Shown here piece by piece: positions 595 through 56,289 of a stretch of 64,000 nt of DNA (the stretch's first letter is position 1; every line of letters begins with the position of its first letter). Origin of the DNA: Chiloscyllium plagiosum (lineage: Eukaryota); NCBI RefSeq assembly GCF_004010195.1, contig NC_057755.1, positions 2,873,498 through 2,937,497 of the forward strand, in the 5' to 3' direction. A program made the position numbers and the translations under genes. A model generated the notes under the pieces. It did not search any database, had not been told where the DNA came from, and was given only the letters and a program-made list of their open reading frames with translations.

Positions 595-1496
595 TCATTT
601 ATTCATAACACGAGGAAATCGTGCAATCTTGTATTTTACTGGATTACTGATCTTTGCTCTGAACCCAGATAATGTTGCTGCATAAATAAATGTATTTGTG
701 CAACAACTTAAGTTCTGCAGCATGTAACCAACGCTATTAAAGTGAAATAGGAAAGGTGGGTATGTGGCAGTATTGATTCCTTGAATGACATAATATAAGA
801 AATCTATAACAACTATTAACCACAGGAGGATGAAGCTCCCAGACACAGTGAAGGGTAAAATCACAGATTTCCTTCTGCTCTCCATCTCTGGGTCTCTGTG
901 ATTCTCTCCTTTGCTCTCACTCTTCAGCCTCTTCCGGACTCGACTGGTCACTAAAATGTGTCGCACAGTCAGAGCATTGAGCAATGGAATTAAAACGAAT
1001 GGCAGTAAAGGGGTCAAAACTGTATCAAGCCAATCTAATGGCACCCACCAAGTCTCAGTATGGTAGCTTAATTTTGTATCATAGTAGAATGGCACATTGT
1101 TGATGATCGTCCAAGGTTCATATTGAAAATAGAAGGGGATATTTTTCAAACAGAATAGGGTGCAGGTTGTTGCTAGAACCATAGTCGCAGTTTTCTCAGT
1201 GCAATATTTTGCTTTCAGCTTTTGACAACAAATGGTCACAAACCGGTCAAAGGAGAAAGTGTCGGTGAACCAGACAGAGCAGTCCCTCGCAACACGTAGC
1301 AGGACTCCAGTAACACTACACACAGGAGTGATATCCAGGAAAGACCGTGGGTAATAATAATAGGGAAATCTGTCCAGTATAACATCAGTGATAATGACCA
1401 TCAGATCGGCAGCTGCCATAACCAACAGGTAACGAGTAGTACAGGAGTAAATACCGCACTTTCCCCGGGGAAGAGTAACAACCACCAGCAAATTAA
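595..1496 (-). CDS. Exon 2 (TM1 end to C-terminus) of an intact class A GPCR, GPR139/GPR142-like
   Basis: Open frame with 7TM motifs MAAADL (TM2), PVC...SVWF...FDRF (TM3), PLLPF (TM5), SGSFILLW (TM6), SCCTNTFIY (TM7). Polypyrimidine tract plus AG acceptor (tttctctttcacag|TTAAT) at 1497/1496. Confidence 0.9.
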
Positions 1497-1630
1497 CTGT
1501 GAAAGAGAAATGGGAAAAGACATGGTCAATTACTGACAGAAATGTCACCTGTCTGTTCCAGAGGGCAAAAATAAGATTTTACCACCAAAACCTGACACAC
1601 TGTGGTTGGGGTTGAGTGAGTTTGAATTTT

Positions 1631-1927
1631 AAGATTAGATTAGATTACAGTGTGAAAACAGGCCCTTCGGCCCAACAAGTCCACACCGACCCACCGAAGC
1701 ACAAACCACCCTACATTTACCCCTTCCCTAACACTACAGGCAACTTAGCATGGCCAATTCACCTGGCCTGCACATCTTTGGACTGTGGGAGGAAACTGGA
1801 GCACCAAGAGGAAACCCACGCAGACACGGGGAGAACGTGCAAACTCCACACAGTCAGTCACCTGAGGCGGGAATTGAACCCGGGTCTCTGAGGCAGCAGT
1901 GCTAGCCACTGTGCCACCGTGCCACCC
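1631..1927 (-). mobile_element. tRNA-derived SINE (HE1-like) in the GPCR intron
   Basis: On the minus strand: A box TGGCACAGTGG, B box GGTTCAATTCC, tail (tctaa)n; several copies elsewhere in the window. Confidence 0.85.
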
Positions 1928-3283
1928 AAGATGTTCAATCCACCTCCGATTGTCCTCCAGCCCAATCATTCCTGTGATTACGGAGATGGCACAGAGATTG
2001 CAGTCACTGCTCCTCCTAGGAGAGCAGAAGGAATTCTATGCTTTGGTTTGGTTCCAAAGTTACTCGTTGAATAATTGTAATGGATTCTTACAGTTCATAG
2101 CGTTATCTCTGGCAGGTGTAGAACCCGATTAGAAACCTGGCTCCCCACTCAGTCATCAGAGTGACGATTTCACTGTCAATAAACCAAACTCTCCCCTGCT
2201 CCTTGGATCAGGTCTTTCCCCAATCTTAGCATTGGACCAAATCCTGATCGGAGCCACAAGAGGAGCAGGAAACAGATCATCAGACCTGCACAAGATTTCA
2301 AATAAGACTACTGCATGCCTCTTACAAAAGTACAGCTGTACAGAACATGCAGGGCTCTCTCAGTGACAACATGTGAGCGTTAGGACTGTTGTGATGTTGA
2401 CACTGTACATCTCAAACATTTCATTGTGCAGGGATCAGGAGGGTAATCTGTAAGAATTTGAATTCTCTTACCAGAGACGGTGAGAAGGAGAGAATCTCCA
2501 GAAGGGATGGTAGTTAGACGAACTTTTACAAATCAAAGTAGGGAATATATCCTTCAAATCCTTTGCTTAATCAAATCAATCTATGTCAGATTTAAAATTC
2601 ATAACTGATCCAGCATCCCCGGCTATTTGTGGAACAGATTTCCCAGCCTCTCCCATCCGTTGGGTGGAGAAATGCTTCCTAACATGGCCTCTGAATGGTC
2701 TGGCCCAAATTCTCAAACTGTGTCGCCTCACCTTGGGACCCCACACCTAGTGGATGCAGTTCATCATCTTTTCCTGTTAATACCTTGTAGGACTTCGCTC
2801 AGATCCACCGCTAAACCTTCCAAATTCTCGAGGAAATAGGAGCAAAAACAAATTTCTCACCAGGTCTGGCAGCATCTGTCTTAGAGAGAGTAAGCAGAGT
2901 TAACCGTTCATGTCCAGACCCTTCAGAACTAAATTGCCTGATCTCTCCTCACACCTTCAGATCGTCTGATACCAGAACAGATGACAGATCACTGAGATCG
3001 GAAAATACAGCAGCAGCGATATTGGGAGTCTTTGTTAGTGGAGAATTGTACCGAAAATGCTGCTCGGTGAATTGCTATCACTGGTCTGGTCTTGATGAAG
3101 CGTTAAGCCTGAAACTTTGACTCTCTTGCTCCTCAGATGCTGCCTGACATGCTTTTCCCATTGCCATGGTTCCAGTATCTGGATAAGGATGACCAGTCAG
3201 TGAGCTGGAGACATTATTCCTCAAAAGATAAATCTAGAGATCAGCAGTAGATTAAAACATGTTTAAAAGTAATTATCCCATAC

Positions 3284-3350
3284 CAGGAACACCAATAAAA
3301 ACAATGATGGTATAGAACACCTTCTCCACTTGTTGAATTGGTAGATGCAT
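3284..3350 (-). CDS. Exon 1 of the same GPCR (MHLPIQQVEKVFYTIIVFIGVP, phase-1 intron)
   Basis: ATG at 3350, 67 nt, ending CCTG|gtatgg. Splicing to 1496 restores TM1 ...IGVP-V-NLL and gives 969 nt (322 aa plus stop). Confidence 0.85.
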
Positions 3351-3710
3351 TTTTCCATGAGTGGTGATCTGTCCCTTTCAGAAGCTGAGCTGATGCATTT
3401 CCAGAGACGCTGCCTTATACTGTGTGGAAGGTCCTTGGGGAGGTCAAGGTTACAGCATTACTCAGCTTTGTTGCTTTTAAAATTTCTGTCAATGAACAAA
3501 CTCATTACAATAACAAGTTTAATCCCAACTATGAACAACTGCTGCTGTTCATACATCAAAATGAAATAAATAAACAGAATCTGGAATTTTCCAGCAGTAA
3601 CACTATGCACCTAAATACCATGAACCTCATCCCCAGAACGCAAATTATTTCAACTGATGCTGTTATTGCTAAGTTGTTGTCTGCAAAATGGTAAAATGGG
3701 AAAAGCATGG

Positions 3711-4506
3711 TGTGCTCCCTTTAAAGATGCTTTTTGGTGCTTAGAGTTAAAATGAATGTCCGAACAGCCGTCTTAACATGCAGGTACTCAGAGAGCGCCC
3801 AAATTGTAACATTTTGTATCGAATGGTCAAGCAGTGTTTTTACCGAGACAACAGCCTTTTTGATTTTAGCCAATCAGTTTAAACCAAGCACGTAGCTTCC
3901 AAAATTCGATTAAATTTAAATCTGATGGTTAGACGACCCAGGACCAATCCAATTGTAAATGGGTAAGTTTTCAAACCGACTGAACTGCCATCTGGAAACA
4001 GATATCAGCTCTTAGAGAAAGCACCATCTATTTACTACTGTACCACGGCACACCATCCAAATTCCTGACAGAAGAAAATATACAGTAAGCATTCCTGACA
4101 GAAGGATCAGAGGAGAAGACACAGGAAGTTCCAGAAGACGTGTAACATGGCTCTGATTTCAGTAGACTAAATTTTATTGTTTGTTGTTTAAGTGGAATTT
4201 GCATTTATTGGAATACCATATCGTTAGAATCCTGTTTTATTTGGCAATAGTTAGTAGTTAGAGGGGAATTGTTCGATCTTTTAATAGCTTAGTTATTCTG
4301 CTCACTCTTAGAGTTAGCGAAATAAATTGTTCCTTTTTGATTGTAAAAATGAGTGCTGGGATTTATTTTACTTAACCACTAGAAGTTGCTAAAAAGTAGA
4401 TGACACCCCTTCTCACACTCCTCTTAGCAGATTATAAGGTGATTCACTCCCCTTTGGGTCATTCCGTTTTAGCTTTCACAGATACCTCTACCTCCGCTTT
4501 CGAACA
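3711..4506 (+). mobile_element. Probable 5' LTR of a Gypsy element
   Basis: Begins TG, ends CA, directly followed by a PBS; 4091-4506 has a diverged homologue at 9131-9547. Left boundary uncertain. Confidence 0.6.
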
Positions 4507-5615
4507 GATTGGGGGCTCGTCTAGGATCTGGACAGAGCAGGTCTGAGATGTGGATACATCTGGAATGACTTGGATACATTTATACAGATCTGACTAGATT
4601 TAATGAACAAAAGGTCCCAGCAGATTTTAACAGACTTGGGGACTAGTATTCTGTGTCTTTAAATAAAACGTAATTGAAAAGTGAAAAATCTGTTGAATTT
4701 TGTTTGCTTGTTTTCGGTTAAACCAAAAGTTGGGAAATATCTCTTAACATTGCTAAATGGGTGCTGCTGGTCGAAGACGGTTCCCAAATTTGCCAAGAAA
4801 GTTTAAAAAGACCGAAAACGGCGAGGCTTATAGAAATGGAAAACTGACTAAAATTGAGTTTAACTAGGGATAATAATAAAGCTGAAATTGTGATGGATTT
4901 CGCCAAATATTTAGGTATGCCAGAGAAACAGACAAGTGCAGTGCAGTTAGAAAACAATAGATTGCAAATGAGACAACTGGAATCGGAGAATGAAAGGAAG
5001 GCGAGAGAGTTTGCATTTCAGTGAAAAGCAAAACAGGTAATTCCGTTTTAGCTTTCACAGATACCTCTACCTCCGCTTTTGAACAGATTGGAGGCTGGTC
5101 TAGGATCTGGACAGAGCGGTTCTGAGATGTGGATACATCTGGAATGACTTGGATACATTTATACAGATCTGAACAGATTTAATGAACAAAAGGTCCCAGC
5201 AGATTTTAACAGACTTGGGGACTAGTATTCTGTGTCTTTAAATAAAACGTAATTGAAAAGTGAAAAATCTGTTGAATTTTGTTTGCTTGTTTTCGGTTAA
5301 ACCAAAAGTTGGGAAATATATCTTAACATTGCTAAATGGGTGCTGCTGGTCGAAGACGGTTCCCAAATTTGCCAAGAAAGTTCAAAAAGACCGAAAACGG
5401 CGAGGCTTATAGAAATAGAAAACTGACTAAAATTGAGTTTAACTAGGGATAATAATAAAGCTGAAATTGTGATGGATTTATCCAAATATTTAGGTATGCC
5501 AGAGAAACAGACAAGTGCAGTGCAGTTAGAAAACAATAGATTGCAAGTGAGACAACTGGAATCGGAGAATGAAAGGAAGGCGAGAGAGTTTGCATTTCAG
5601 TGAAAAGCAAAACAG
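4462..5615. repeat. 579-bp direct tandem duplication (LTR end, PBS, gag start)
   Basis: 4462-5036 recurs at 5041-5615 with few substitutions; near-identical ORFs at 4718 and 5297. Confidence 0.95.
4510..4527 (+). promoter_or_regulatory. Primer binding site, tRNA-Pro type
   Basis: TGGGGGCTCGTCTAGGAT, 16/18 match to the tRNA-Pro PBS TGGGGGCTCGTCCGGGAT, 3 nt after the LTR end. Confidence 0.75.
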
Positions 5616-8385
5616 AAGGAAAGGGGAAGAAGAATTATAGCAGAAGAGAAAGAAAAAGTGAGAGTTTGAAATTCAGAAGATGACAATTAAACAGGGAAGT
5701 CGGCGTAAGAAGAAGATGGGGAAGGTATAAGGTAGGCTTAGTGAGGAGCCGAGAGTGTGATGCTGGAAAGGCACAGTAGGTCAGGTCGTATCTGAGAAGT
5801 AGGAGGGTCAACATTTCGAGCATAAGCCCTTCGTCATGAATGACGCTTGTGAACCAATGGGGCTGACAGATAAATGGGAGGTGATGGAGCTGGGGCGAAG
5901 GTAACTGGGAATGTGATAGGTAGATGAATGTAGGAGGAAAGGTGATAGATCAGAGAGGAGGTTGGAGTGGATAGATGGGAAGGAAGATGGACAGATCAAG
6001 AATGCAGTGCCGAGTTGCCTGGGGTATGTTGAGAGGAGGCGAAATGAGGAAACTGGTAAAATCCACATTAATTCAGTGTGGTTGCAGGGTCACAAAGTGG
6101 TAGATGAGGTGTTCTTTCTCCAGGCGTCTGGATGTTAGTGTTTGGAAATCGAGGAGGCCCAGGACTTGCATGGCCTTGTGGAGTGGGAGAAGGAGTTAAA
6201 GTGTTCAGCAACAGGGTGGTGGGGATGGTTCGTGCATGTGTCCCAGAGATATTCTCTGAAAAGATCCGGAAGTTTGTGTCCTGTCTCCTCAATGTGGAGG
6301 AGATCACATTGGGTGCAACGCATACAGTAGATGATGTGTTAGTGAGGAGCATAGTAACGATGAACAAACCCATCGTAGCTAAAGGCCTGGTAGAGATATA
6401 TACAAGTAAATCAAAACATTACCAAAATTTAATGAAAAGAATATAGAAGCATTTTTTACTTCCTTTTAGAAACAGATGAATTGCCTCATGAACAGAAAAA
6501 CTGCTCAGAGACTGTGTGGGTAAAGTAAATTCAGACCAAGTTGGTATACAGGGATAGTGAGCTGTTTGCAGTGTTATCAGAGATGCCTACAGCAGAATAT
6601 GAAGAAGTAATACAGACTGTTTTGAGAGCCTATGAATTGGTAGCAGAAACATATGGACAACAGTTCGGAAATATAAGGAAGGAACCAAGTCAAACTTATA
6701 TTGAGATTGAAGAATTCAAAAGATACATGGATGAAAGTACTAAAGATAGACAATATTTTGTTCTGCTTAAGAAATTTAAAAGCTCACTTCCATAATTGAT
6801 AAGAACTCATGTTGTGCAGCAGAAAATTCACGCAGTGTGAAGAGCTGCAGAGATGGTGGATGAATATGCGTTCGTGGATAAATCAAAATCTAGCTTATGA
6901 CAGCAATTTCATTCCGTGAGGGATACAAAATTGGGAAGACGGAGATCCTTCAATTCAATACAAAAGGTGGATCACACTGGGGCCAGTTTACCACATATGA
7001 AGAAAAGGTGTCTTCACTGCAATAAGGTGGGACACAAAGTCACAGTGCTGGTGGTTTACGAAAGGCACTGGGAAAAAGCATGAAATAGAAGAGGATAAAC
7101 CAATGGGATCAGTGAAGGCAATGGAGGAAATTCTGAGAGAAATCGAGGGACTGAAGGAGAGTGTGCCGCCGAGACACGGGCTGAATAGTAACGTAGAACA
7201 CCATCCTTTCAAATGCTTCACCTGTGTGGGTAAGATTTACTGAGGTAGAACGGGGGAATAAGTAAAGAAATTTAAATATTGAGAGATACAGGATAGAGTC
7301 TGTCACTAATGGTAAGAGATGAAAATATCTGTACTCTTTCTGAAATATTGCCTAACAGAGTGGTAATCTGTGGAATAAATGGATAGAGGAGTAGTGTTCC
7401 CCTGTGACAGATAAGGCTAGAAAGTCTAATCAATACCGTGGAAGGGATAGTGGAGTGCTGGAAAGTTGGTTATTCAGGAATCCAATTTATTCCTGGAAAC
7501 AATACAACTGGATCAGAGCTGAGAGTGATATCTGTTGTAATGGAAAAGCCAAAAGAAAACCAGAGAACTGAGGAGTTAAAACAAAAATACCCTGGATTTT
7601 TTTACGGATTATGGGTGCCAAAATCCAACAGCCATAAGGTAAAACAAGACGGTAAAACAAAAAAGAAAGATGACGGAGTTGAGCTGACACTCTATTTGAT
7701 GAACTGGTAAAGGAAAATCCTAAGCATAGGGAGAATCTGACAGAGGTGTTTAGTTCTGAAAGGTTACTGGAATAAAAAGATGAAACAAAAAAGATTTATA
7801 TCATAAGGCCTCTCAGAAAAGGCATCGGAAAGTATTCCGGAATGCTGTTACCTTAAGGATGAAAGTTTAAGGCAGACATGGAAACTTTGGCAGGTTAGTG
7901 CAGATGAGAATGGGGAAAGATATACCCGGTTGTGTTGCCAATTTGATACCGACAGGTCGTTTTGCAGGTAGGGCACAAATTATCTGTAGGCCATCAGGCT
8001 GACATGAATATGCATTTTTATTGGCCTGGAATACATAAAGATGGAGTTGGATTTTGCTGCACGTGTCACACATGTCGGATAATAGGGAAGCTGATCGCTG
8101 TGATAAAACCAGTGCCTTTGATGCCAATTCCCACATTTAATGAACTGTTTACATGGGTTGTGATTGATTGCGGAGGTCCCCTCTTTAAAACCAAAACTGG
8201 GAATCAGTGTTTACTAACCATAATGGACATGCCTTCCAGATTTCCACAGATAATTTCATTGTGGAATGTGAAGGCAAAAACAGTTGTAGAGGAGTTGCTT
8301 GATGTGTTTACCCATTGTGGATTATCCAGGGAGATCCAGTCAGACAAAAAGTTCAGTTTTACTGCCAAATTATTTACGCGGATCA
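4528..8385 (+). mobile_element. Degraded Gypsy (Gmr1-like) internal region: gag, protease, integrase
   Basis: Gag segment VLRAYELVAETY, knuckle CLHCNKVGH (~7008), protease ILRDTG (~7280), integrase FYWPG..CHTC and VIDCGGPL..TIMD..SRFP..IQSD; many stops and frameshifts. Confidence 0.85.
5751..6330 (-). mobile_element. Penelope-like element 3' fragment nested in the Gypsy gag
   Basis: GIY-YIG remnant (CTQCDLLHIEETG...FREYL...HPVAEHFNS) plus a terminal repeat with a decayed hammerhead motif. Confidence 0.85.
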
Positions 8386-9120
8386 TAGATACTGATTTTT
8401 CATTTCAAAGGACATTACTTTAAATTGATATAGCCTATTTGGGGTCAAAAAACACAAAATTCGCCAGTAACAGCGAAATATGACCAACTTCATGATGTAA
8501 GTATCTTGTCCTACTTCTTCCAAATAGTCCACCAGCTTCGGAATTGGGTATGAGTTAGATTTTGTCATAATATTGACCTTCCAATAATGCAAGCGGAATT
8601 GTTGAGTACCATCAAGCTTCAGAACCAACATGATTGGCGAACCCTACTTGCTTTAACACATTTGAATGATGTCTTCTTGGAGCATCGCTTCCACTTCCTT
8701 CTGAACCTGTGCTGCTTTGAGAGAATTAAGCCTGATGGAGTTTGTCTTGTCGGAACAACATTCCTTTCATCAAAGTTAGTCCTCTCCATTCTATTTCTAT
8801 ACAGGTCCACATAGCACAGGTACAGGTCTATCTGGAGACAAATTCCTTGCTATTCCTTGAGGACTTCTTTAGTCAATTTATTCTGAGGATTCAAAACTAA
8901 ATCTTCTGTATTGGAATCCTCACTCTGACAGGCAGTAACTAATCGCTTTTTCTCCAGTTCCCTTTCCTTGTCATAATACTGTTTCAATATGTTCACATGA
9001 CATGCTTGATAAACATTCTTCCTATCTGATCTTATTAGATAGCTCTCCTGACTTATCTTCTTCTATGACAGGGACTACTAAACCTTGCTTTGAAGGAATC
9101 TCCTATCACTGGTAACAGCA
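8386..9120 (-). mobile_element. Inverted segment of Gypsy pol (integrase C-terminus to start of RT)
   Basis: Minus strand reads LLPVIGDSFKARF... then YWKVNIMTKSNSYPIP...YQFKVMSF; same order as 58300-59100 on the plus strand. Confidence 0.75.
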
Positions 9121-10245: not shown

Positions 10246-10508
10246 TTATTTATTCAGAACACAAGGAATTTGTGTAATCAAATACTGACCCGTATCACTG
10301 ATCTTCGCTCTGAATTCAGACAATGTTGCTTCACAAATAAATGTTTGTGCAACAACTGAGGAGCTGCAGCTTGTGACCAACTTTCCTGAAGTGATACAGA
10401 AAACCCAAGTCATCATCAGGATTGATTCCTTGAATGGCATAATATAAGAATCTCAAAACATTGACTAACCACAGGAGGATGAAGCTCCCAGAGATGGTGA
10501 ACAGCAGT
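10246..10508 (-). pseudogene. GPCR paralogue fragment (TM6, TM7, C-tail only)
   Basis: LLFTISGSFILLWLVNVLRFLYYAIQGIN...LSCCTN, then a 2-nt deletion and ATLSEFRAKIS...VLNK*; colinear with 595-860. Confidence 0.9.
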
Positions 10509-10742
10509 CTCCTGACACCCCCTCCCAGTCCAGGGAAGACTGTAATGTTAAGCCTCCAGTCTCCTGACACCTCCTCTCGGTCCAGAAGAGAATGTAATGT
10601 CAATCCTACAGTCCAGTCCAGCGGTTACTGTAATGTCAATCCTCCAGTCTTCTGACACCCTCTCCCATTCCAGAGGAGACTGTAATGTTAATCCTCCAGT
10701 GTCCTGACACCTCCTGCCAGTCCAGGGGATACTGTAATGTTG
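10505..10742. repeat. ~52-bp minisatellite, ~4.5 copies
   Basis: tgtaatgt core at about 10541, 10593, 10629, 10681, 10733 with ctccagtctcctgacacc between. Confidence 0.85.
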
Positions 10743-12425: not shown

Positions 12426-12429
12426 GATT

Positions 12430-13032
12430 CAGAAATGGGATACCAGCGTTACCAAGCATCCATATAAAGCACATTGCTGCAGGCAATCAATATCAGAAAT
12501 GGGATACCAGCATGGTCAAGCAGCTATATAAACGACAGTGCTGCAGGCACTCAATATCACAAAGGGGACATCAGCGTGATCAAGCAGCTGTGTAAAGCAC
12601 AGTGCTGCAGCCCTCAATGTCAGAAATGGAATACCAGTATGGTCAAGCAGCTATATAAACGACAGTGCTGCAGGCACTCAATATCAGAAATGGAATATTC
12701 GCGTGATCAAGCAGCTATATAAAGAACAGTACTGCAGGCCCTCAATATCAGAAATGGGATACCAGAGTGTCTAAGCAACTACATAAAGGACAGTGCTGCA
12801 GGCCCTCAATATCAGAAATGGGATACCAGCATGACCAAGTAGCTATATAAAGCACAGTACTGCAGGCACTCAATATCAGAAATGGGATACCAGCATGACC
12901 AAGCAGCTATATAAAGCACAATGCTGCACCCCCCAATATCAAAAATGGGATACCAGCATGACCAAGCAGCTATACAAACGACAGTGCTGCAGGCCCTCAA
13001 TATCAGAAATGGATACCAGCGTGACCAAACAG
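12430..13032. repeat. 64-bp tandem repeat, ~9.5 copies
   Basis: Unit cagaaatgggataccagcatgaccaagcagctatataaagcacagtgctgcaggcactcaatat, starting at 12430, 12494, 12558, 12621, 12685, 12749... Confidence 0.95.
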
Positions 13033-13127
13033 CCCCTCATGGTTTTGTAAACCTCTATAAACCTCCATTATAAATGAATTTCAAATTATGTTTGAGGTTG
13101 AGCAAATTGGGTCTCAAACCAATGTGT

Positions 13128-18656: not shown

Positions 18657-18836
18657 CCACCCACGCCCTCTACCTCCTCCATGATTTTTGCTTCCCTTCT
18701 CCAAAGAAATCAGGGCAGACAGCATGATTAAAATCACAGTGACAGTTCTCACCGTGCAGTTGTTTGATTTAAACTTTCACAAAGTTTCAGAAAGAGTTAG
18801 AAAACATGAGGGAATTTCCTAATTCTTCATGAAAGA

Positions 18837-20260
18837 ATGGTAACAATTCTACATATAAAGAACATTTGCCATGCTGTTATTGCAGCCTTTGGTGTTCTTG
18901 GTAAGACAATGTCATTTTTCTTCATGGAGAGTGAATATTATGGTGTTCATGTCAGGTTTCAGAAATAGTCCTCATTGCAGAATCGCTTATCCATCAGATG
19001 GAACTGGGGAAGACAGACTCGGTAATGCACATTTACTGAACAGCTCCTCCAGGATGAGTATCAGCAAAGAAAATCAACTCTTGGATGTTAATGCAATGTT
19101 TGTGTCCAAATGGAATGATTTGTTGGAATCAAGGAATGTTTCGCAATTATCTGGAAATGATTTAGACATAGCCATCAATGAAATATCAAGTTTGTTGGAA
19201 GAGCATAGAAATTAAATCTTCAATATTGTTTTGTCCTCAATTAAATTGTCAGTGCCATTGGTCTACATTATAAAAACAAATCCTTGGAAAACTTGATGTA
19301 AGGTCGCCTCTGACTATAACCCAAACATTTACTGTTCATTTCTTTATGGAATTCCACTTCTAATCTCTTCTCTCTTCCTCTTACAGCAAACTTACTGACC
19401 ATCATCATTCTCTCCGGTGGAAATTGTGGACTTTCTAAACTTATCTTGGCTTACATGATTGCCATGGCAACTGCAGATTTCCTGGTGATATTTTTCAATG
19501 TCATTGTGTATCACTTTTTGAGTTATCACTTTCCACATTCATTTCTATCCTACACTGCTGTTTGTAAGTTCAGTCTGTGCATTAATCCTGCCACATTGAA
19601 TATGTCTGTGTGGTTCACTGTCTTCTTTACAATTGACCAGTTTGTAGTGATCAGTTGTCAGACGTTTAAATCAAACAACTGCATGGTGAGAACTGTCACT
19701 GTGATTTTAACCACACTGTCTGCCCTGATTTCTTTGGAGAACATACCCTTTCGATTTGCCTATGAGCCAGCTGAATAATTTCCAGCATTGCCTGGGGTTG
19801 TCGCTCCAATATGGCCTTTTATACATCGCCTGCAGGTGAGACCTATTTTAGTTGCATAGCTGCCTTTTTGTTTGATATTACTGTTTAACTCTTTGACGTT
19901 CCAGCGTATTTTAGTGATCAGCAAAGTCCGCAGTGCACTGTGGCGTGTAAGCAACAAGAATAGCACTGACCCAGAGATGAAAAACAGAAGGATATCCATT
20001 CTGTTACTGTATCAGGCAGTTTTGTCCTATTGTGGCTAACAGCAATCGTTAACTTTTTAACCAGCAAACTCACAACAACAGCGTATTACCGAGAGGATCA
20101 CACAGCTCCAACATATTTTGCCACTGAATCTGGGTACATCCTTATGTATGTGAGTTCCTGTACAAACCCATATATTTATGTAGCTACACAAACCAAATTC
20201 AGGAAGGAGATGAAGAAGATGATGAAATCTCATTTCCTTTTGAGCTTGACTTTGGTTTAA
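18837..20260 (+). pseudogene. Two-exon GPCR pseudogene (exon 1 18837-18900; exon 2 19387-20260), divergent subfamily
   Basis: Exon 1 MVTILHIKNICHAVIAAFGVL G|gtaaga; acceptor cttacag|CAAAC; AMATADFL, SVWFTV..DQF, DPEM..RRISI, SSCTNPYIY; frameshifts near 19775, ~19850 and ~20010. Confidence 0.9.
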
Positions 20261-22266: not shown

Positions 22267-22424
22267 TAGCTACATAAATATATGGGTTTGTACAGGAACT
22301 CACATACATAAGGATGTACCCAGATTCAGTGGCAAAATATGTTGGAGCTGTGTGATCCTCTCGGTAATACGCTGTTGTTGTGAGTTTGCTGGTTAAAAAG
22401 TTAACGATTGCTGTTAGCCACAAT
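22267..22424 (-). repeat. 158-bp inverted copy of GPCR pseudogene 20029-20186
   Basis: Reverse complement matches; same peptide WLTAIVNF...NPYIYVA in the ORF track. Confidence 0.95.
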
Positions 22425-26023: not shown

Positions 26024-26135
26024 ACACAGGCACTGGGAGAATGTCCGAACTCCACACAAACAGTTGCCCAAAGCTGGAATCGACCAAGGGTCCTTGGCGC
26101 TGTGAGGCAGCAGTGCTAACCACTGAGGCACCACG
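26024..26135 (-). mobile_element. tRNA-derived SINE head
   Basis: Matches the 5' part of the SINE family. Confidence 0.75.
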
Positions 26136-28718
26136 GTTCCTTAAAGGGCCTATACTGCGCTGTAATGTTCAATGTTGCATGAGTGTAACTTTCATTATTA
26201 GCCGAGTGGTTCCGTAAAGGGTCTGTACTGTGCTATAATGTTCTATGTTCTATCGTCTGACGTCCTTTATTAGCCCAGCTGTTCCATAAACGGCCTGTAC
26301 TGTGTTGTAACGTCCTTTGTTCTATGTGCTCAGTCTCATTTATTAGCCGAGTGGTTCCGTAAAGGGTCTGTACTGTGCTATAATGTTCTATGTTCTATCG
26401 TCTGACGTCCTTTATTAGCCCAGCTGTTCCATAAACGGCCTGTACTGTGTTGTAACGTCCTTTGTTGCATGGGTGTAACTTTCATTATTAGCCGAGTGGT
26501 TCCGTAAAGGGTCTGTACTGTGCTATAATGTTCTATGTTCTATCGTCTGACGTCCTTTATTAGCCCAGCTGTTCCATAAACGGCCTGTACTGTGTTGTAA
26601 CGTCCTTTGTTCTATGTGCTCAGTCTCATTTATTAGCCGAGTGGTTCCGTAAAGGGCCGTAGTGCGCTGTAATGTTCTATTTTCAAAGAGTTCAGCCTCA
26701 TTTATTAGCCGAGCTGTTCCATAAAGGGCCTGTAGTGCGCTGTAATGTCCTATTTTCAATGAGTTCAGCCTCATTTATTAGCCAAGCAGTTCCATAAAGG
26801 GCCTGTAGTGCGCTGTCGTGTTCTATGTTCTATGAGTCTAACTTCCATTTTTTTGCCAAGCTGTTCCATAAGCGGCCGTACAGCGCTGTCGTGTTCCTTG
26901 TTCAATGAGTCGAACTTCGTTTCTTAGCCGAGCGGTTCCATAATGGGACATTAATGCCCTGTGATGTTTTATGTTCTATTAGTCTAACTTGCTTTGTTAG
27001 CTGAGCGGTTGCATAAAGGGCCTGTACTGCGCTGTCATGTCCTTAATGTTCTATGTGTGTAACTTCCTTTATTATCTGAGCAGTTACATAAAGCTCATGT
27101 ACTGCACTGTCATGTTCTATGTTCTGTGAGTCTAACTTTCTTTAGGAGCCGAGGCGTTCCATACAGTTCCTGTACTGCGCTGTAATGCTTTATTTTCTAT
27201 GAGTCTAACTTCCTTTATTAGCCTAGCGGTTTTATAAAGTGCCAGTACTACACTGTGATGTCACATTCGATGTTCTATGAGTGTTATGTGTCTAACTTCC
27301 TTCATCGGCCGAGCGGTTCCATAAAGGGCTTGTACTGCATTATCATAGTCCAGGTTGTATCAGTCTAATGTCCTCTATGAGCCTAGCGGTTACATACAGA
27401 GCCTGTAATGCGCTGTAATGTTTGATGTTCTATGAGTCTCTTCCATTATTAGCCGAGCAGTTCCATAAAGGGCCTGTACTGCGCTGTAATGTTCTATGTT
27501 CTATGAGTCTAACTTCCTTTATTAGCCGAGCCGTTCCATAAAGGGCCTGTACATAATGGGCTCTACATTTTTGTCTAACTTCCGTTATTAGCTGAGCGGT
27601 CCATAAAGCTCTGTACCATACTGTAATGTTCTATGTTCTATGAGTCTAACTTCGTTTATATGCCGAGCACTTCCATAAGCGGCCTGTAGTGCGCTGTCCT
27701 GTTCCATGTTCTATGAGTCTAACTTCCTTTATTAGTCGAGCGGTTCCATAAAGGGCGTGTACTGCACTGTAATGTTCTATGTTCTATGAGTCTAACGTGC
27801 GTTATTAGTCAAGCGGTCCCATAAAGGGCCTGTACTGCACTGTGATGTGCGATGTTCTTTGAGTCTAACTTCCTTTTGTAGCCCAGGGTTTCCATAAAGG
27901 GCCTATACTGCGCTGTCATGTTGTATGTTGTATTATTCAGACTTCCAGTAGTTGCCGAGCGGTTCCATAAAGGGCCTGTACTGCTCTGTAATGTTCTATG
28001 TTCTGAGTCTAACTTCAGTTAATAGCCGAGCAGTTCCTTAGAAAGGGCCTGTACTGCGCTGTAATGTTCTATGTTGTATTAGTCTAACGTCCGTTATTAG
28101 CTGAGAATTTCCATTGAGGGCCTGTACTGTGCAGTAATGTGTTTTGCTCTATGAGTCAAACTTCCTTTATAATCCGAGGGGTTCCATAAACCTGTATGGC
28201 GCTGTAATATTATGTGTTGTACTAGTCTGACTACCCCTACTAGCAGAGGGATTCCATAATGGGCGTGTGCTGTGCTGTAAATTTCTATGTTCTCTGAATC
28301 TAACTCTCATTATTAGGCGTTCCATAAAGGGCCTGTACTGCGCTTTATTGTTCTATGTTCTGTCAGTGTAACTTTAATTATAATCGAAGGGGTTCTATAA
28401 AGGGCCTGTACTGCGCTGTAATGTTCTTTGTTTGATGCGTCTAACTTCCTTTATAGCCGAGCTGTTCCATAAAGGGCTTGTACTGCACTATCATATTCTA
28501 TGTTCTAAGTGTCTAATTGCTGATATTAGCCAAGCGATTCAATGAAACACTGTAATGCTCCATGTTGTATTTGTCTAACTTTTATTAGCTGATCGGTTCC
28601 ATAAAAGGCCTGTACTACACTGTAATGTTCAAGGTTCTATGTGTGTAACCTCCTTTATTAGCTGAGCAGTTCCATAAATGGTCTGTACAGCGCTGTCATA
28701 TTCTATGATCTTTGAATC
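26135..28718. repeat. ~73-bp satellite array (~35 monomers), truncated by a gap
   Basis: Consensus aagggcctgtactgcgctgtaatgttctatgttctatgagtctaacttcctttattagccgagcggttccata; ggcctgt at 27471 and 27544. Confidence 0.95.
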
Positions 28719-35975: not shown

Positions 35976-36104
35976 GTTTAGATCAGAATAGTGCTGGAAA
36001 AGCTCAGTAGATCAGGAAGCATCTGAGGTGCAGGAAAATCAATGTTTCTGGCAAAAGTCCTTCATCAGGAATAGAGGCAGGGAGCCTCTGGAGCCTTTTG
36101 CCTC
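35976..36104 (-). mobile_element. Solo Penelope terminal repeat with 13-bp target-site duplication
   Basis: gaagaaattaatt at 35963-35975 and 36105-36117 flanks the insert. Confidence 0.8.
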
Positions 36105-36139
36105 GAAGAAATTAATTACTACTCCAAAAATATTGAGTG

Positions 36140-36713
36140 TGTATTATGTTCCTGGGAGTTTTTTGATCCTCATGTCATTCCCTGACTGTCTTCACAGTTG
36201 ATTGTTCTGTCTGGTTCACTGGTGAATTTTCTTTTGATCAATTTGTCGCCATTTGTTTTCATCAGATAAAATCTCAGTATTGCACAGAGAAAGCTACGGA
36301 TTACTTCAATGAACATTTGTGGATGAGTTATAGATATATTGAATTATTTATAAAACCACTTCTTCCATTGGTTTTGATTCTCTTTCTCAAAGTTCTGACA
36401 GTCAGACACATCTTCGAGACCATTAAGGCACGTAAGGGACTGAGAGGTCAGACAAAAACAGAGAATGATCTAGAGATAGAGTGCAGAAAGAAATCTATGA
36501 CTTTACTGTTTGCTGCTCTGGATGGTGTGTGTGTGTGTATATGGTTTTGCTTATTACGTGGATGATTTTTATCTCTTTGAACAAATTGCATATATGCTGT
36601 GGAACCTCAGTTGCTGCTCCAATGCAGTGATTTATGTGGTGATACAGAAAAGTTTCAGAGACCAGTTAAAGTATGCAGTGAAATATCCAGTGAGAAAAAA
36701 AATCATTTGGTGA
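36140..36713 (+). pseudogene. Heavily deleted GPCR pseudogene (exon 2 remnant)
   Basis: YYVPGSFL; CSVWFT..FSFDQFVAICF..YCTEK; KPLLPLVLIL..LTVRHI..RKKSMTLLF; MLWNLSCCSNAVIY..VKYP. Confidence 0.88.
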
Positions 36714-37489
36714 ATAAATCCAAGTAACTGAGAGCCAACATGAGCTGCAGCAGATACTGGAATGAGGAGTCTACGTGAGGATTGGTCCGAAAGGCGAAGG
36801 AGGAGCAGCAACATGATGACACTCATTTTCAAATGGGCAAGGACTGACTCCGTCTGAGGAAAAACATGAAAAAGACTGCAGGAGGAATGCCAGAGTAAAG
36901 GAGCAACCGTTACCAAGAAGCAACAGTCAGTAGAAAGCTGAACAACAAAAGCATAACCAAAAATTATCTGTGGCCCCCAAAAAAGTGATCCCTTGCAATC
37001 AGTTTACAGCAAGTGACCCGGATACACTAAAAAGACCTGGAGGAAAGTATCAGCGTTCACTGCAGGGTGAACACCAATGACAGGCTCCTGTCGACTCTTC
37101 CTCATGGAAATCTCTGGTCCACAGATCTGGATAAAAGTTAAAAAAAAAGAGAAGTTTGAACTCCATCTGGTGTTCCATTCAGCTCCCCCCCGGCTTGATG
37201 CTGATATCACTCCCTTTCTTTATTTTTTTTCCAACAATCAGCTGCTGTGTTGATGTGGAATCCAAAGTCCAATCAGAGGGCTCGGGGGTAGTTGGGCTCT
37301 GAAGTTCGGGAATGGGATGTGGGAGATGAGCCGATATCCTCCGTGCTTCTCTGGAAAGGTTGTGTGGCTCTCACTGACTGCACCGAGTTCAGTGGGACCT
37401 GACTCTGGATGAAACCTGTTTGCTTGTGGCTTCATAAGGAAGCTTAAGATCAGTTCAATCCACATCACTACCAAGATGTCTGTTTCCAT

Positions 37490-37750
37490 CGGTAAACCAG
37501 CTCCTAAAACGTTGCTTTCCTCACAGCTCATCATCGGGGAAACAGTCATTCATTCCATTGTTTCCATCTGTAACACAGCTCCTAAATCCACCCCCCTGTC
37601 TCACAGCTCATCATCGGGGAAACAGTCATTCAGTCCATTGTTTCCATCTGTAAACCAGCTCCTAAACTCATCCATCTGCCTCACAGCTCATCATCGGGAA
37701 AACTGTCATTCATTCCATTGTTTCCACCTGTAAAACAGATCCTAAACCAA
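37490..37750. repeat. ~80-bp tandem repeat, ~3 copies
   Basis: cagctcatcatcggg at 37524, 37603, 37684. Confidence 0.85.
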
Positions 37751-37769
37751 TTCCTCTGCCAACTCAGGT

Positions 37770-48295: not shown

Positions 48296-48297
48296 CC

Positions 48298-48895: not shown

Positions 48896-49735
48896 CCGTA
48901 TTCCCTCAAGATATAACACCACAAGACGTCTAGTACGGACTAAACACACGAGCTCAGACTCCCAGACAGTCATTCCATTGCTCACCAGTGGAGGGAAAGA
49001 TTAGATACAAACATGGGAACCGAGACGATTCAACATGGCCACGCCCATGGATACAGAGCGTTTAGAACCTCTGTTGGCTGCCTACTTAGCAAGCCCACTC
49101 AGTCACTAATCCTGGAGATGTAACAGATCCTGGCAGCCACCAAAGACAGAGTCCTACTGTTTCTGATTGTCCAAGCTCACACGGAACTCACCTGTCTTCC
49201 AACTCATCTTCTTGTGTACACAGATAGTATTAACCAGGTTACTGTTCTTTGGTATCCCTCATTTCTTTCATTTATATGTAAACCACTGGCCTCTTGACAC
49301 CGTTCACATTGGTACTTAACGTTAAATTGATGATCATACTTAACGGTCCCTTCAGCAGACTGTCTTCATCGTCACTTGTCTTTGAAAACACATCATGGTC
49401 GGGTCATTGAAAGTCCTTACCCCCACCACTGGAAAATAAAGTTAGAGCAGACCTGCCTCTGAAAACCAGCTGAACCGTCCACCTGTGGTCCACATTAGAA
49501 GTTTTCGGGTTGTTATTGATTTTAAAAAAAAAAATTGGGAGAGGGTGAGTATGCAGACGATAGAGTACTGTGTCGAAACTCGTCAGCTACAAAACAATGA
49601 TTACAACAGAATCAACCTTAATCTCTCCTGTGATAGCCATAACTGCACGAAATACAATCATGATGTACCTCATCAGGATCATTATCATAATTGGGAACCA
49701 GGTGCAGGAGACATCAACCAAACCTGGGGATACGT

Positions 49736-50105
49736 CCCCAGGCTATTTATGGTTTGGTCCACTGGATGTCTCCAGGATATTTATGGTTTCGCTCACTGGA
49801 TGTCCCCAGGCTATTTATGGTTTGGTCCACTGGATGTCTCCAGGATATTTATGGTTTGGCTCACTGGATGTCCCCTGGATATTTATGGTTTGGTCCAGTT
49901 GATGTTCCCAGGATATTTATGGTTTGGCTCACTGGATGTCCCAGGAAATTTATGGTTGACCCACTGGATGTCTCCAGGATATTTATGGTTGCCCCACTGG
50001 GTGTCCCCAGGATATGTAGGGTTTGGCCCAATGGATTTTCCCTGGATATTTATGGTTTGGCCCACTGGATGTCCTCTGGATATTTATGGTTTGGCCCATT
50101 GGATG
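49736..50105. repeat. 34-bp minisatellite, ~11 copies
   Basis: Unit ggatatttatggtttggtccactggatgtctcca at 49741, 49775, 49809... Confidence 0.95.
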
Positions 50106-50626
50106 CCTGCGAATGTGAGGATGGTGCATTATGGGTACACCCAAATAGGAGTATAATGTTTGGATGCACCAATCATCGGTAGTATATAAAAACACAAATA
50201 GTAGCTCAGATGATTGTTACCTGAGCGTAGGAATAACGTGTGATGGACTATTGCTGTTGTGGGTATGTTGGCTGAGCTGGGAAGTTGTTTTGCAAACGTT
50301 TAAAATTACAATAAACTACTGGAATCAGCAACCAGAAGCAGTAGGAATGGAACCAAATAAACTCCACAAGGCACAGTACAGCAGCGCTTCACAGGAGGCT
50401 CCAAACCACAGTGGATTTCACCTAGACATGGGACGAAGCATCTACACACCAACTTCCCTGCTCTACCAACATACCCACAACTATAACAACCAACAGCCGA
50501 GATACAAACCTTCATGGAAACCCTGAACTAGTGGGGATTCTCAAGCAATGGGTGCCCTGAGATAGAACAACAGAACCAGGTCCTATGCAGCATATCCGGA
50601 CAATGGATGAGTCAACAGTTGAGGGA

Positions 50627-51322: not shown

Positions 51323-52560
51323 TATCGCCTATTTAGGGGAACTGTTTATGGAAGGGATCCTGATATCTTTTGAACAGCTGCATCAAAAATTTGGATTACC
51401 TAATGATGATCTCTTTCGATAATTCCAAATTCAAGATTACATACAGCAGAAGACTACACTATTAGATAGTCCTTCTAAATCAGAACAGAGAACGTAGAGT
51501 GTTATGACCAGTAGGGGTGCCTTCAGTCAGTACTCTTTATCATTTATTACATGATGAAGTATCGGAAGATATGGACAATCTAGTTAAAACATGGGATCAG
51601 GATTTGGGGCTGGAAATCTCCATAGAAATGTGGAATGACATTTGGGACACTGCCAGAAAAATCTCCATCTGCAACAGAATCCAGGTGATTCAGTTGAAGA
51701 TACTTCACAGGGCCCATATAGCACCAGACCAATTGGCAAATTTTAAGGCAGGAACATCTTCAGTGTGACCCAAATGTAAAACAGAGGTGGGCATTCTTGT
51801 ACACTGCTTATGGACTTGTCATAAGACCGGAAAAATTGGACTAAAGTAGCAAATGCACTGATAGAAATCTTGTGAACGGAAATTAGAGTGGATCCAGTAT
51901 CTCTCCTTTTGGGCTTTTCGAGCTTGCCTTCCCTGGGTGTGCACAGGAAGATATTATTTTCCATTTTCTCTTCCAGTGCAAGGAAAATTACTTTAGTAGA
52001 CTGGGTGGCTGAGGGCTCTCCTGGACTCTCGAATTGGCATAGAATGATCATGGAATATATTCCCCTTGACTTCCTTACAAACATGGTGCACCAAAAAACC
52101 GAATTATTCTCTAATATATGGCAGCTCTTCTTGAATTACGCAGATACAAATATTTCGGCATTTCCACCAAGGGCTTTTATCTAATCGCGACAATGACCCT
52201 GGCTGGGCCAGAGCCCCTTGGGGGAGGAATCTGCATGAATACGGGTTTTGTTACGAGCTGATGTTAACACATTCCTAGCATATACTTTACTACTCAATTT
52301 CTGTGTTATCCATCATTTTTTTCTTTTAATGTATAATGTAAGAAATTTAATCATGCACTCTGGTTAGTTGTAGATTAGATTAGTAGTTATTTGAGTTTTG
52401 TCTTTTTTTTCTTGTCAGTATCTCTCCTTTTGTTTGATAGATTTTGGTTATTATTTATTTAAGATGTAATTGTATATCAATGTTTATATTTGGGTTTTCT
52501 TTTATTTATAAACTTGTAAAACCATGTTATGTTTTCAATAAAAATAACTATTAAAGAAAA
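51322..52560 (+). mobile_element. L1/Tx1-clade LINE 3' end
   Basis: QLKILHRAH...PKC....LVHCLWTC..W C-terminal zinc-binding motif; T-rich 3'UTR with AATAAA and an A-rich end. Confidence 0.8.
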
Positions 52561-52561
52561 G

Positions 52562-53007
52562 ACTATTGCCAGGTATGGAGAAAAGGTCTTATGAGGAAAG
52601 GCTGAGGTACTTGAGGCAGGTTTTGTTAGACAGACGATGGTTGAGAGGTGACTTCATAGAGACGTGCAAGATGATCAGAAGATTAGTTAGGATGGACAGT
52701 GACAGCCTTTTTCCTTAGATGGTGATGGGTAGGATGAGGGAACATAGCTTTAAGTTGAAGTGTGATAGACACAGTACAGGTATCAGAGATAGTTTCTTTA
52801 CTCAGAGAGTAATAAGAGCGTGGGACACACTGACTGCAACTGTAGTAGACTCGCCAAAATTAAGAGCATTTAAATGGTCAGTGGATAAACATATGGATGA
52901 TAACTAAATAGTGTAGATTTGGATGGGCTTCAGACTGGTTTCACAGATCAGCACAACATCAAGGGTTGAAAGGCCTGTACTATGCTTTAATGTTCAATGT
53001 TTTATGT
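52562..53007 (+). mobile_element. CR1 LINE 3' end
   Basis: FFTQRVIRAW..L..; tail ...aaggcctgtactatgctttaatgttcaatg. Confidence 0.82.
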
Positions 53008-53890
53008 CTGTGAGATTTCCTCCATTTGTAATTCATAGATTTTATGCTCTGTTATTTCGCTTGCAGTTAATTTACTCGCAATTGTGATCGTGTTCCAAGG
53101 AAACTGCGGCATCCCAACCTGCACCAGTCGCTATCTTGTGGCCATGGCGACTGCAGATCTATTCGTTATAATCATTGAAGTCATACTATGGCAGATTAAA
53201 TATTATTATTTCCCATTGTCTTTCATGCTGACAATATTTTGATTCTTTCAGCCACAAACCGCTCGGTCTGGTTCACAGTCATATTCTTCTTTGATTGATT
53301 TGTTGCCATCTGTTTTCAGAACCTGAAAACGAAATATTGCACTCAGAAAAATGCAGCTCTTGTCCTCTCAATAACCTGTATTCTGCTCTGTTTTACAAAT
53401 ATCCCCTTCTGCTTTATATATGACCCGATAGGTCATTGCCAAACTTTCATGGTTCTGCTATTAAAAGGAAAATTATTTTACTGAGCCTGGATGGATTGGG
53501 TTTTACTGTTTTGATTTTAACGCCATTACTTCCGTATGGTTTAATTCTGTTACTCAATGCTCTGAGAGTGAGACACATTTTAGTGACCAGTCAGATCTGT
53601 CAGGGACTGAAGAGTCAGTGAAAAAGTGAGAATTCAAGTGACCCAGAGGTGGAGAGCAGAAGAAAGTCTGTGATTTTACTTTTGACCATATCTGGCACCT
53701 TCATAATTCTGTGGTCAATTCATGTTACAGAATTCTTTTATTATAATATTTGAGGAATGTATCTGAGAAATTACAATAGTTCAGAACTTATATTTGCAAT
53801 GGCTGGCGTTTCACTGGAAAATTTAAATTGCTGCACAAGCACATTTGTTTATGGGGTGTAGGTTTGCTGGCTGAACTGTAGGTTTGATAC

Positions 53891-53930
53891 CCAGACGTTT
53901 CATTACCTGGCTAGGTAACATCATCAGTGG
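53891..53930 (-). ncRNA. Minimal hammerhead ribozyme motif (family C)
   Basis: cca-CTGATGA-t-gttacct/agcc/aggtaat-GAA-ACGT-C-tgg. Confidence 0.75.
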
Positions 53931-55075
53931 CGACCTCCAAGTGAAGCGAAGCTGGTGTCTCCTGCTTTTTATTTATATCTTTCTCCTGGATGGGGTTCCT
54001 GGGGTTTTGTGGCGATGTCATTTCCGGTTCGTTTTCTGAGGGGTTGATAGATGGCATCTAGATCTATATGTTTGGTTATGGCGCTGTGGTTGGAGTGCCA
54101 GGCCTCTAGGAATCCTCTGGCTTGTCTTTGCTTAGCCTGACCCAGGATACATGTGTTGTCCCAGTCGAAATGGTGGTTGTTTTCATCCGTGTGTAGGGCT
54201 ACGAAGGAGAGAGAGTCGTGTGTGGTGGCTCGTTGGAATAGTGTTCTGACACAGCTTTGTTCGCGTGTGTTGGGATGGTTGCTGGTGTAGTTAAGTATTT
54301 GGCCACTGTTTGTCGGTTTTCTGTATACGCAGGTTTGTAGTTCTTCGTTGTCCTTTCTATCGACTGTGATGTCGAACGAGCCACCACACACTGCAGCACA
54401 GATGTACTTCGGAAAACAGAGGAGAACCATCTATACAACGTATTCAAGAAGAACGGATACCCAAAAAATACAGTGCACAGATTCCTCAAGAACAAACCAC
54501 GACAAGCAGACCAAACACAGCCAGAAACCCTAACCACCTTACCATACATCAAAGAAGTTTCAGAAATGACAGCCAGACTACTAAGACCCCTCGGAATCCT
54601 ACTAGCACACAAACCTACCAACACTCTCAAACAAAATCTAACAAACTTAAAAGACCCAGTACAACCCATGGACAAAACCAACGTCATCTACAAAATTCCA
54701 TGCAAGGACTGCCACAATCACTGCGTAGGATAAACAGGAAGAAAGTTAGCCACCAGGATACATGAACACCAGCTAGCCACAAAAAGACACGACTCTCTCT
54801 CCCTCGTAGCCCTACACACAGTTGCAAAAAAACACCGTTTCGACTGGGACAACACATCTATTGGGTCAGGCTAAGTAAAGACAAGCCAGATAATTCCTAA
54901 AAGCCTGGCACTCCAACCACAACGCCATAAACAAACACAAAGATCTAGATGACATCTATCAACGCCTCAGAAAACGAACAGGAAATGACATCACCACAAA
55001 ACCCCAGGAACGCCATCCAGGAGAAAGATATAAATAGAAAGCAGGAGACAACAGCTTCGCTTCACTTGGAGGTCG

Positions 55076-55115
55076 CCACTGATGATGTTACCTAGTCAAG
55101 TAATGAAACGTCTGG
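55076..55115 (+). ncRNA. Minimal hammerhead ribozyme motif (family C)
   Basis: cca-CTGATGA-t-gttac/ctagtcaa/gtaat-GAA-ACGT-C-tgg. Confidence 0.75.
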
Positions 55116-56289
55116 ATATCGAACCTACAGCTCAGCGAGCAAACCGACACCCTAAACCTCAACCTGAGTACAAACCTTCACAAACCATGCACATTTGTTT
55201 ATATGGCAATTCAACTGAAGTTCAGAGAGCAACTCAGGGAGATGATGAAACATCCTCTCACATTAATTATTCAATTAGTACTTAAACAAAAGATCTGACA
55301 GTAGTCTCGAGGCATGTCCCTTAGTTTTATATGTATGAATGTTAAACTGATCGCCAAAATAAAACATAACACAGTATGCTGGTTGTGGAGTAGCCCGCAT
55401 TCAGGCTCTTGTACCCGGACCTCATCCACACTGTCTTCTTTTCTTTGTTTTTCCTTTTCTCCTTCTTTTCTTGCCTTGTACTTATCTTTTCGGATGAGCT
55501 TGGTCATGGTGCCAACAGTAACAAGTTGTAGGCGAAAGCCAGTGAGCATGGAGGAGGCACCTGGCAAAGTGGCGAGCATGGGACCAGGCTGTTACATCAG
55601 TGGAGGCGCCATCGGCGAGATAGGCCCAGCAGTGAAAGATGTCACTTGAGTATTGGGAACTTCGAGGCTGGTGGCAGCAAGAAAGTTAAGGAGTCTCTTT
55701 AAGCTATACCTTAAATTGTTTAAATGATGCCAGAAAATGTGTATTATGTGTAAAATAAAAAAATGACAATCAAATCAAATCAATCATTCAAAATCCCAAT
55801 AGATACAAGACAAAGAGCTTTATGTGATCGAGTGGGATGTGTGGAAACATAGATAGTAGACATGAGCGTAGGACATTGGTTCATCAATTCTGCTTCACAA
55901 TTAACTTGATCATAGCTGATCCTCTATCCAATATACCTGTTCTCCCCCAATTCCTCATGAGGCTTTTTTTATCTCTAGAAATCTGCCCATTTATTTTATC
56001 AAAATATGCATGATTTGTCTTCCATAGACTTCTGTGGTAGAGAATTTCATGTGATCATCACCGCCCACCCCCAAAAACTGGAAAGATATGCTCCAATCTC
56101 AGTCCGAAATGGCCCATCCCATATCCTGAGATTGTACCTGCTTTTCCCCGTGCTCCCCCATTAAAGGGAAGTACTAACAAAGCATCCGGCTTGCCCATTC
56201 ATCAGAAGGTCAGACATTTCAATTAGATCATGTCTCATTCCTCCAAATTTCTGTGACAGCACCTGGAATCAATCCAGTATCATCTTTGG

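Follow-up and report, generated by a model that had tools for sequence, protein, structure and literature searches.

The window analysed here, a whole stretch of 64,000 nucleotides of Chiloscyllium plagiosum (contig NC_057755.1), covers part of a gene cluster in decay, which belongs to a large family of class A G-protein-coupled receptors (GPCRs) of cartilaginous fishes. Possibly no gene in the window still works, and the family is both larger and older than the window shows. In the sharks, variation gathers in the ligand pocket and in the second and third extracellular loops (ECL2, ECL3), and the intracellular loops (ICL) are conserved. Judged from sequence, the pocket variation very probably reflects different ligands, which would make the family a ligand-diversified receptor repertoire with one output and constant gain and loss of genes. 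An earlier note on this DNA had proposed a lineage-specific birth-and-death receptor repertoire, and the searches described below supported the proposal, the family spanning all cartilaginous fishes with many paralogues.

A shark receptor family with a variable pocket

At E<=1e-5 the homologue search retained 1776 proteins from 2567 candidates. The best 120 of these 1776 proteins, hereafter the 120 homologues, all came from sharks (11 species), and nearly all were automatically named "probable GPR139". The horn shark contributed 65 of them, located on 19 contigs with 25 on one contig, and no pair of these 65 proteins was more than 95% identical in the core. Assuming one assembly, the horn shark has at least 65 distinct paralogues of one subfamily among the best 120 matches; the earlier note would have given up an expanded family had copies been few, and many were found instead. 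When a profile was searched against 50%-identity representatives, 131 matches reached E<=1e-30. Species were looked up for 30 of the 150 best profile matches: the 20 taken from the upper range were all from cartilaginous fishes, including skates, rays and one chimaera protein, and the 10 from the lower range comprised salamander, coelacanth, two teleosts, lancelet, one UniRef protein and four entries with no useful name. Other database names, "vasopressin V2 receptor-like" and "capa receptor-like", also occur within the family, and counts based on names therefore underestimate the family. The annotated N-termini of P0003, P0027, P0072, P0077 and P0104 match repeats of the window resembling long interspersed nuclear elements (LINE-like), and these gene predictions have therefore missed the short exon 1.

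Class A features were found throughout. The Pfam scan assigned 7tm_1 to 36 of 36 aligned family members, DRF stands as the DRY-like motif, and the predicted model of the whale shark paralogue P0004 (predicted local distance difference test, pLDDT, 87.7) returned a bundle of seven transmembrane helices (TM) with an ECL2 hairpin. The two cysteines of the TM3-ECL2 pair occur in 119 and 118 of the 120 homologues.

Variability was evaluated at 35 class A pocket positions, the list of which was fixed before the test, and compared with that of 146 other TM positions. In the horn shark paralogues (n=65, mean identity 0.75) the entropy was 1.28 in the pocket and 0.51 at the other TM positions (p 1e-5), and a set cut to 19 rows gave 1.13 and 0.44. 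Amphibian and sturgeon orthologues of the single-copy sister gene described below (n=19, identity 0.73) showed the opposite sign, with 0.18 in the pocket and 0.59 elsewhere (p 3e-6). When the 20 TM positions of highest variability were taken, 15 lay in the pocket in the horn shark, 11, 10 and 16 in three other shark sets, and 1 in the orthologues. The loops followed the same pattern, since sharks conserve ICL1-3 and vary ECL2-3 (entropies of 0.32 for ICL2, 0.45 for ICL3, 1.11 for ECL2 and 1.66 for ECL3) while the orthologues do the reverse (0.78, 1.17, 0.67 and 0.35, respectively), and the divergence of ECL2 and ECL3 announced in the earlier note is thus borne out across the family. Fingerprints of eight pocket positions distinguished 64 different types among the 65 horn shark paralogues, and the variable positions of horn shark and sawshark coincided (Spearman 0.64).

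GPR139 and the single-copy sister gene

The receptors had been described as GPR139/142-like. GPR139 was indeed the best human match to the shark family profile (55.6 bits vs 39.5 for the next), and the shark, sister-gene and outgroup profiles all ranked it first (55.6, 64.7 and 141.6 bits); however, the nearest relative is a single-copy gene of amphibians, sturgeon and reedfish. The family may be assigned to the GPR139/142/210 group in a wide sense, GPR139 being the nearest human receptor by these profiles, and the database name "probable GPR139" is a best-hit label. The shark profile returned 171 bits for a salamander orphan, 167 bits for a coelacanth orphan and about 98 bits for outgroup proteins. 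A fold search with P0004 placed GPR139 barely ahead of neurotensin and opioid receptors (E 9e-10 vs 1e-9), with 21-22% identity in the fold alignment; locus A of the window, used alone, did not reach E 0.001 against GPR139 in PDB.

GPR139 orthologues are reported to share 70-96% identity with the human protein and to be encoded by a two-exon gene (available part of PMC7318219), and the agonist anchors of GPR139 are given as E3.32, R6.51, N7.38/7.39 and D2.61 (available part of PMC12775434). Among the 120 homologues, R6.51 occurs once and N at 7.38 or 7.39 never; E3.32 and D2.61 lie outside the 12 commonest residues at their positions, and locus A itself has D at 2.61. The anchors are not kept, and aromatic amino-acid sensing is therefore not transferable to the family. 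GPR139 orthology, which the earlier note had held to be fatal to its proposal, was rejected on the basis of identity (21-22% vs 70-96%), anchors and copy number. It is very improbable, and largely refuted, that the receptors are plain extra GPR139 copies sensing L-Trp/L-Phe in brain or gut: the first rank by profile, the narrow lead by fold and the shared two-exon layout agree with such copies, and the low identity, the missing anchors and the scores that the same profile gives to the salamander and coelacanth orphans contradict them.

A mixture-model tree of 45 proteins, hand-picked from a 78-row quick tree with two added proteins and rooted on three unnamed proteins, joined 29 cartilaginous-fish rows and five bony-vertebrate rows (the latter 100/100) in one clade with 100/100 support. 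Its labels "frog", for a UniRef protein, and "invertebrate" or "lancelet-like", for unnamed proteins, are our assumptions. The tree contained three bony-vertebrate lineages, and several subfamilies of the cartilaginous-fish part held sharks and rays alike. The chimaera protein was nested within a 19-row clade (99/96), and because of this nesting the radiation appears to have begun before the chimaera split.

The sister gene was represented by 20 amphibian clusters, each from another species, one sturgeon and one reedfish protein. Among the matches listed by word-seeded searches, amniotes and teleosts had no close counterpart, although this does not prove that the gene was lost. In the sister receptor (P0233, P0296-P0315, P0326) position 2.50 is occupied by N instead of D, and the amphibians have S instead of N at 1.50. 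Its pocket is fixed and basic (R2.61, K6.51, K6.55, R6.59, R7.35), hinting at one acidic ligand.

The five loci and their decay

The five paralogous loci of the earlier note, lying on both strands, were confirmed by tblastn. Exon 2 of locus A, used as query against the window, retrieved four further loci on both strands (E-values of 8e-22 for B, 5e-44 for C, 2e-18 for D and 4e-56 for E), and the 120 homologues retrieved the identical five loci together with the detached 3' end of E (Table 1). The loci are 32-62% identical in pairs and fall into different subfamilies; this range of identity ruled out a young array, that is, a recent tandem amplification of one gene in the window. Two architectural traits ascribed to the loci were found only in part. 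The first exon of about 65 nt followed by a phase-1 intron in TM1 was recovered in A and C, the 486-nt phase-1 intron of C having a position identical to that of A, and the acceptor of E has the same phase as in A; however, the profile scan gave no exon 1 for B, D and E, and neither did a pattern scan for D and E. The strict ICL3 motif DPE(M/V)ExR(R/K)KS, present in 96 of the 120 homologues, is kept in two of the five loci (A and E), whereas C (DPEMKNRRIS) and D (DLEIECRKKS) deviate from it and the region is absent from B.

Table 1. Receptor loci of the window and the elements that interrupt or adjoin them (positions within the 64,000-nucleotide window).
Feature	Position	Strand	Remarks
Locus A, exon 1	3284..3350	-	67 nt; 22 codons + one base; phase-1 GT donor; profile score 40.7, E 5e-12
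Locus A, intron	1497..3283	-	1787 nt; within TM1; GT-AG; phase 1
Locus A, exon 2	595..1496	-	TM1 second half to helix 8; open frame
Locus B	10246..10507	-	TM6-TM7-helix 8 remnant; frameshift; 5' part absent
52-bp tandem repeat	10505..10741	.	abuts B at the place of its expected upstream coding sequence
Locus C, exon 1	18837..18900	+	64 nt; phase-1 GT donor; profile scan
Locus C, exon 2	19387..20260	+	pseudogene; two stops, damaged ECL2, TM6 frameshift
Locus D	36100..36730	+	decayed pseudogene; 5' end missing; TM6 frameshift
Locus E, exon 2, main part	53067..53852	+	pseudogene; several stops (one in DRF motif), frameshifts
Insertion in locus E	53853..55202	.	about 1.35 kb; splits E in TM7
Locus E, 3' end	55203..55298	+	helix 8 + stop

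The earlier note had counted one intact and four decayed loci. The four are pseudogenes and the frame of A is open: its two exons joined encode 322 aa, which matched Pfam 7tm_1 with 57.2 bits (cut-off 30.5), and its nearest database relatives are whale, zebra and bamboo shark proteins with 76-78% identity. Despite the open frame, locus A is probably non-functional and decaying, because it carries five substitutions absent from the 120 homologues (S10P, V79D, C139Y, L171P and L215P in exon-2 numbering, each residue found in 0/120 at its column). C139Y removes the ECL2 cysteine, conserved in 118 of the 120; V79D lies in the middle of TM3, L171P in TM5 and L215P in TM6. Four of the changes in A are radical and fall at columns at least 93% conserved, whereas 78 of the 120 homologues are free of such changes, a single one occurs in 30, two occur in 10, three in 1 and four in 1. 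Damage is made less certain by the lack of any stop or frameshift, by a tree branch that is not long (0.13-0.2) and by the occurrence of at least one radical change in six of the nine nearest database relatives as well. The predicted model of the exon-2 product of A was poor (pLDDT 59.7, predicted template-modelling score 0.46) and was not used; the modelled product contained only half of TM1 and its alignment was shallow, so the model is no evidence of damage. The intron of A contains a repeat resembling a short interspersed nuclear element, further copies of which occur elsewhere in the window.

Locus B falls in the same subclade as A, and C in a distant subfamily, 40% identical to A. An inverted copy of the TM6-TM7 region of C lies at 22267-22424 (-) (158 bp, 100% identity), and a second inverted copy, from its TM4 region (about 78 bp, a few changes), lies at about 18699-18776 (-), just upstream of exon 1; these flanking copies may have arisen by inversion or duplication at this site, or may be an error of the assembly. 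Locus D has lost 39 residues across TM4-ECL2. The insertion that splits E has inverted ends with 91% identity (53847-54221 vs 55157-54787) and a target-site duplication of 14 bp (53839-53852 and 55189-55202), and from the resemblance of its open reading frames we take it to be Penelope-like.

So many broken copies raise the question of a largely neutral bloom, in which duplication in repeat-rich regions would yield mostly non-functional copies and pocket variation would reflect relaxed constraint. Four of the five loci are broken and the fifth is apparently damaged, radical changes recur in most of the nearest whale, zebra and bamboo shark paralogues, and the window is full of repeats, all of which fit such a bloom. 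Drift, however, is not expected to hit the pocket while sparing the intracellular face, nor to vary the same positions in horn shark and sawshark; moreover, 78 of the 120 homologues carry no radical change at conserved columns, subfamilies are common to sharks and rays, and the pairwise ratio of non-synonymous to synonymous substitution rates (dN/dS) within the window is below 1 (0.49 for A-B, 0.33 for A-E). We consider a neutral bloom quite improbable.

Elsewhere in the window, a 580-bp tandem duplication with 97.6% identity was observed at 4457-5615, and satellite-like arrays at 26134-28715 (73-bp unit, flanked by two assembly gaps), 12429-13033 (64), 49734-50105 (34) and 37481-37760 (80). 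We take the segments 7947-8423, 57056-58765 and 63003-63395 to be decayed integrase- or gag-like pieces of long-terminal-repeat retrotransposons, and the remainder of the window to be mostly LINE-like and Penelope-like pieces, by resemblance of their open reading frames.

Possible roles and comparison with known systems

The explanation we propose would start from a single orphan receptor in the ancestor of jawed vertebrates, a member of the GPR139/GPR210/FMRFamide-receptor-like group. This receptor would have remained a one-copy gene in amphibians, sturgeon and reedfish, its pocket fixed and its one ligand conserved, and in cartilaginous fishes it would have multiplied from before the chimaera split. 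The shark copies would keep the signalling face (DRF, ICL2, the ICL3 segment DPEMESRRKS and helix 8) and vary positions 2.61, 3.29, 3.32, 3.33, 6.51, 7.35, 7.39 and 7.43 together with ECL2 and ECL3, the outcome being many ligands and one G-protein output. Taken as a whole, the explanation by a ligand-diversified cartilaginous-fish repertoire that would read outside cues has, in our judgement, an even chance of being correct. The ligands seem rather likely to be peptides or amino-acid derivatives, because the receptors have a peptide-receptor layout, with the TM3-ECL2 cysteine pair and the ECL2 hairpin. External chemosensing in nose, taste buds, skin or gut is, on sequence grounds, the leading candidate and nearly an even call, the tissue being a guess. 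In its favour, the family is large and clustered, contains pseudogenes and shows lineage-specific blooms, and it combines a variable pocket with a conserved intracellular face, although this last trait is weak when the extracellular half of the helices serves as control.

Several points weigh against this explanation. When the extracellular-half positions outside the pocket serve as the stricter control, sharks indeed show a weak excess at the pocket (p 0.03-0.04); the pocket list is a general class A list placed by motif anchors rather than read from a structure, and the TM6 register differs by 4 residues from that of the amphibian gene. Monophyly of the cartilaginous-fish rows reached 94/82, under the starred threshold, and human GPR139 and GPR142 stand outside the trees. 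The proteins taken from the database are predicted from genes, some of which may be in decay. Finally, catshark olfactory neurons are described, in the available part of the source, as all microvillous with V2R, needing no further family (PMC10116579).

The same sequence signature and the peptide-receptor layout would also suit an immune or barrier surveillance repertoire, in which leukocytes, skin or gut cells would read microbial or parasite peptides as formyl-peptide and MRGPR receptors do, and fast turnover with pseudogenes is typical of immune receptor clusters too. By inspection, no immune gene was seen beside the five loci in the window, and the fixed pocket of the single-copy sister gene agrees with a start from an internal ligand; we regard this role as fairly unlikely. 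It appears rather improbable that the receptors bind neuro-endocrine or reproductive peptides made by the animal itself or by conspecifics, and that they diversified alongside a family of such peptides. The nearest named invertebrate look-alikes are FMRFamide-receptor-like clusters, and GPR139 has been placed with MIP/sex-peptide and FMRFamide receptors (available part of PMC12208981); however, receptors of endogenous peptides reportedly persist as stable one-to-one orthologues (available part of PMC2576165), which is at variance with nearly as many distinct pockets as paralogues and with four to five dead loci out of five. A link with electroreception was rejected, as frogs, which have no ampullary organs, keep the sister gene.

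Among the papers listed by our literature search, no study of the shark receptor family was found, and a term search of the main texts of two further shark genome papers gave no GPCR mention. The white shark genome paper (Marra 2019) reportedly lists, in passing, a few dozen "GPR139" copies, and the bare expansion may already be in print. The available parts of the catshark sensory paper, the whale shark paper, the GPR139 review and the chemoreceptor review do not mention the family, and "GPR139" has 0 occurrences in that part of the whale shark paper. The separate lineage, the single-copy sister and the signature of pocket diversification were not found in the literature searched.

Cartilaginous fishes have large olfactory organs, and chemoreceptor surveys, to our knowledge, are confined to six known families. 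These genomes would also contain a ligand-diversified GPCR family at least as large as the shark olfactory set, hidden by an automatic name that misleads. The olfactory receptor sets of cartilaginous fishes are reported to be the smallest among vertebrates, with a mean of 43.8 and a range of 20-62 complete genes in 10 species (available part of PMC10869828). If the family is chemoreceptive, its at least 65 horn shark members would outnumber the known olfactory repertoire of any surveyed cartilaginous fish, and the notion that sharks rely on very few receptors for smell would be overturned; if it is immune instead, it would represent a so far undescribed array of innate sensors in the oldest lineage that possesses adaptive immunity. 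The single-copy amphibian gene provides a handle on the ancestral ligand.

Among known systems, GPR139 and GPR142 resemble the family in sequence and fold (GPR139 ranks first among human receptors in both), in having two exons and in a non-canonical TM7 motif (NTFIY vs NFFLY). They differ from it in being single genes with other ligand anchors and low identity, and the TM3-ECL2 cysteine pair of the shark family is absent from the GPR139 alignment; the lack of proline at 6.50 in the shark family is a further difference. GPR210A and GPR210B, with a third set from gar and coelacanth, are GPR139/142-related orphans reported as single genes in a study whose available part has 0 occurrences of "shark" (Rinne et al. 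2019, PMC6504862); they share the same non-mammalian branch, and three bony-vertebrate lineages were found in our tree too. The sister orphan (e.g. Pleurodeles XP_069092602.1) forms the 100/100 clade with the shark family and has a short N-terminus and a relaxed form of the ICL3 motif (19 of 19); it differs in having one cluster per species, a conserved pocket and proline at 6.50, a residue found in 0 of the 120 shark homologues.

The chemosensory families OR, TAAR, V1R, V2R, T1R and T2R and the FPR/MRGPR clusters share clustering, birth-and-death, a variable pocket and a conserved signalling face with the shark receptors, but have another ancestry. The 36 shark-family members matched 7tm_1 only, with no olfactory or vomeronasal match to the OR, TAAR, V1R, V2R, T2R and Srw models of Pfam, apart from weak single matches to Srx (1/36) and TAS2R (1/36; E 0.002-0.005). 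A parallel in turnover is nematode srw, described in the available part of the source as a high-turnover expansion from an FMRFamide/myosuppressin-receptor-like group and speculated to contain environmental-peptide receptors (PMC2576165). The Atlas neighbours of the shark family are GPR139-named chordate clusters and FMRFamide-receptor-like clusters, and they carry Srw in 17-87% of members. The two expansions are independent, and Srw matched none of the 36 shark-family members at E<=0.01. We tentatively suggest that the shark receptors might be an unrecognised vertebrate chemoreceptor family, forming a repertoire in cartilaginous fishes only and recruited from a peptide-receptor-like orphan in parallel to nematode srw.

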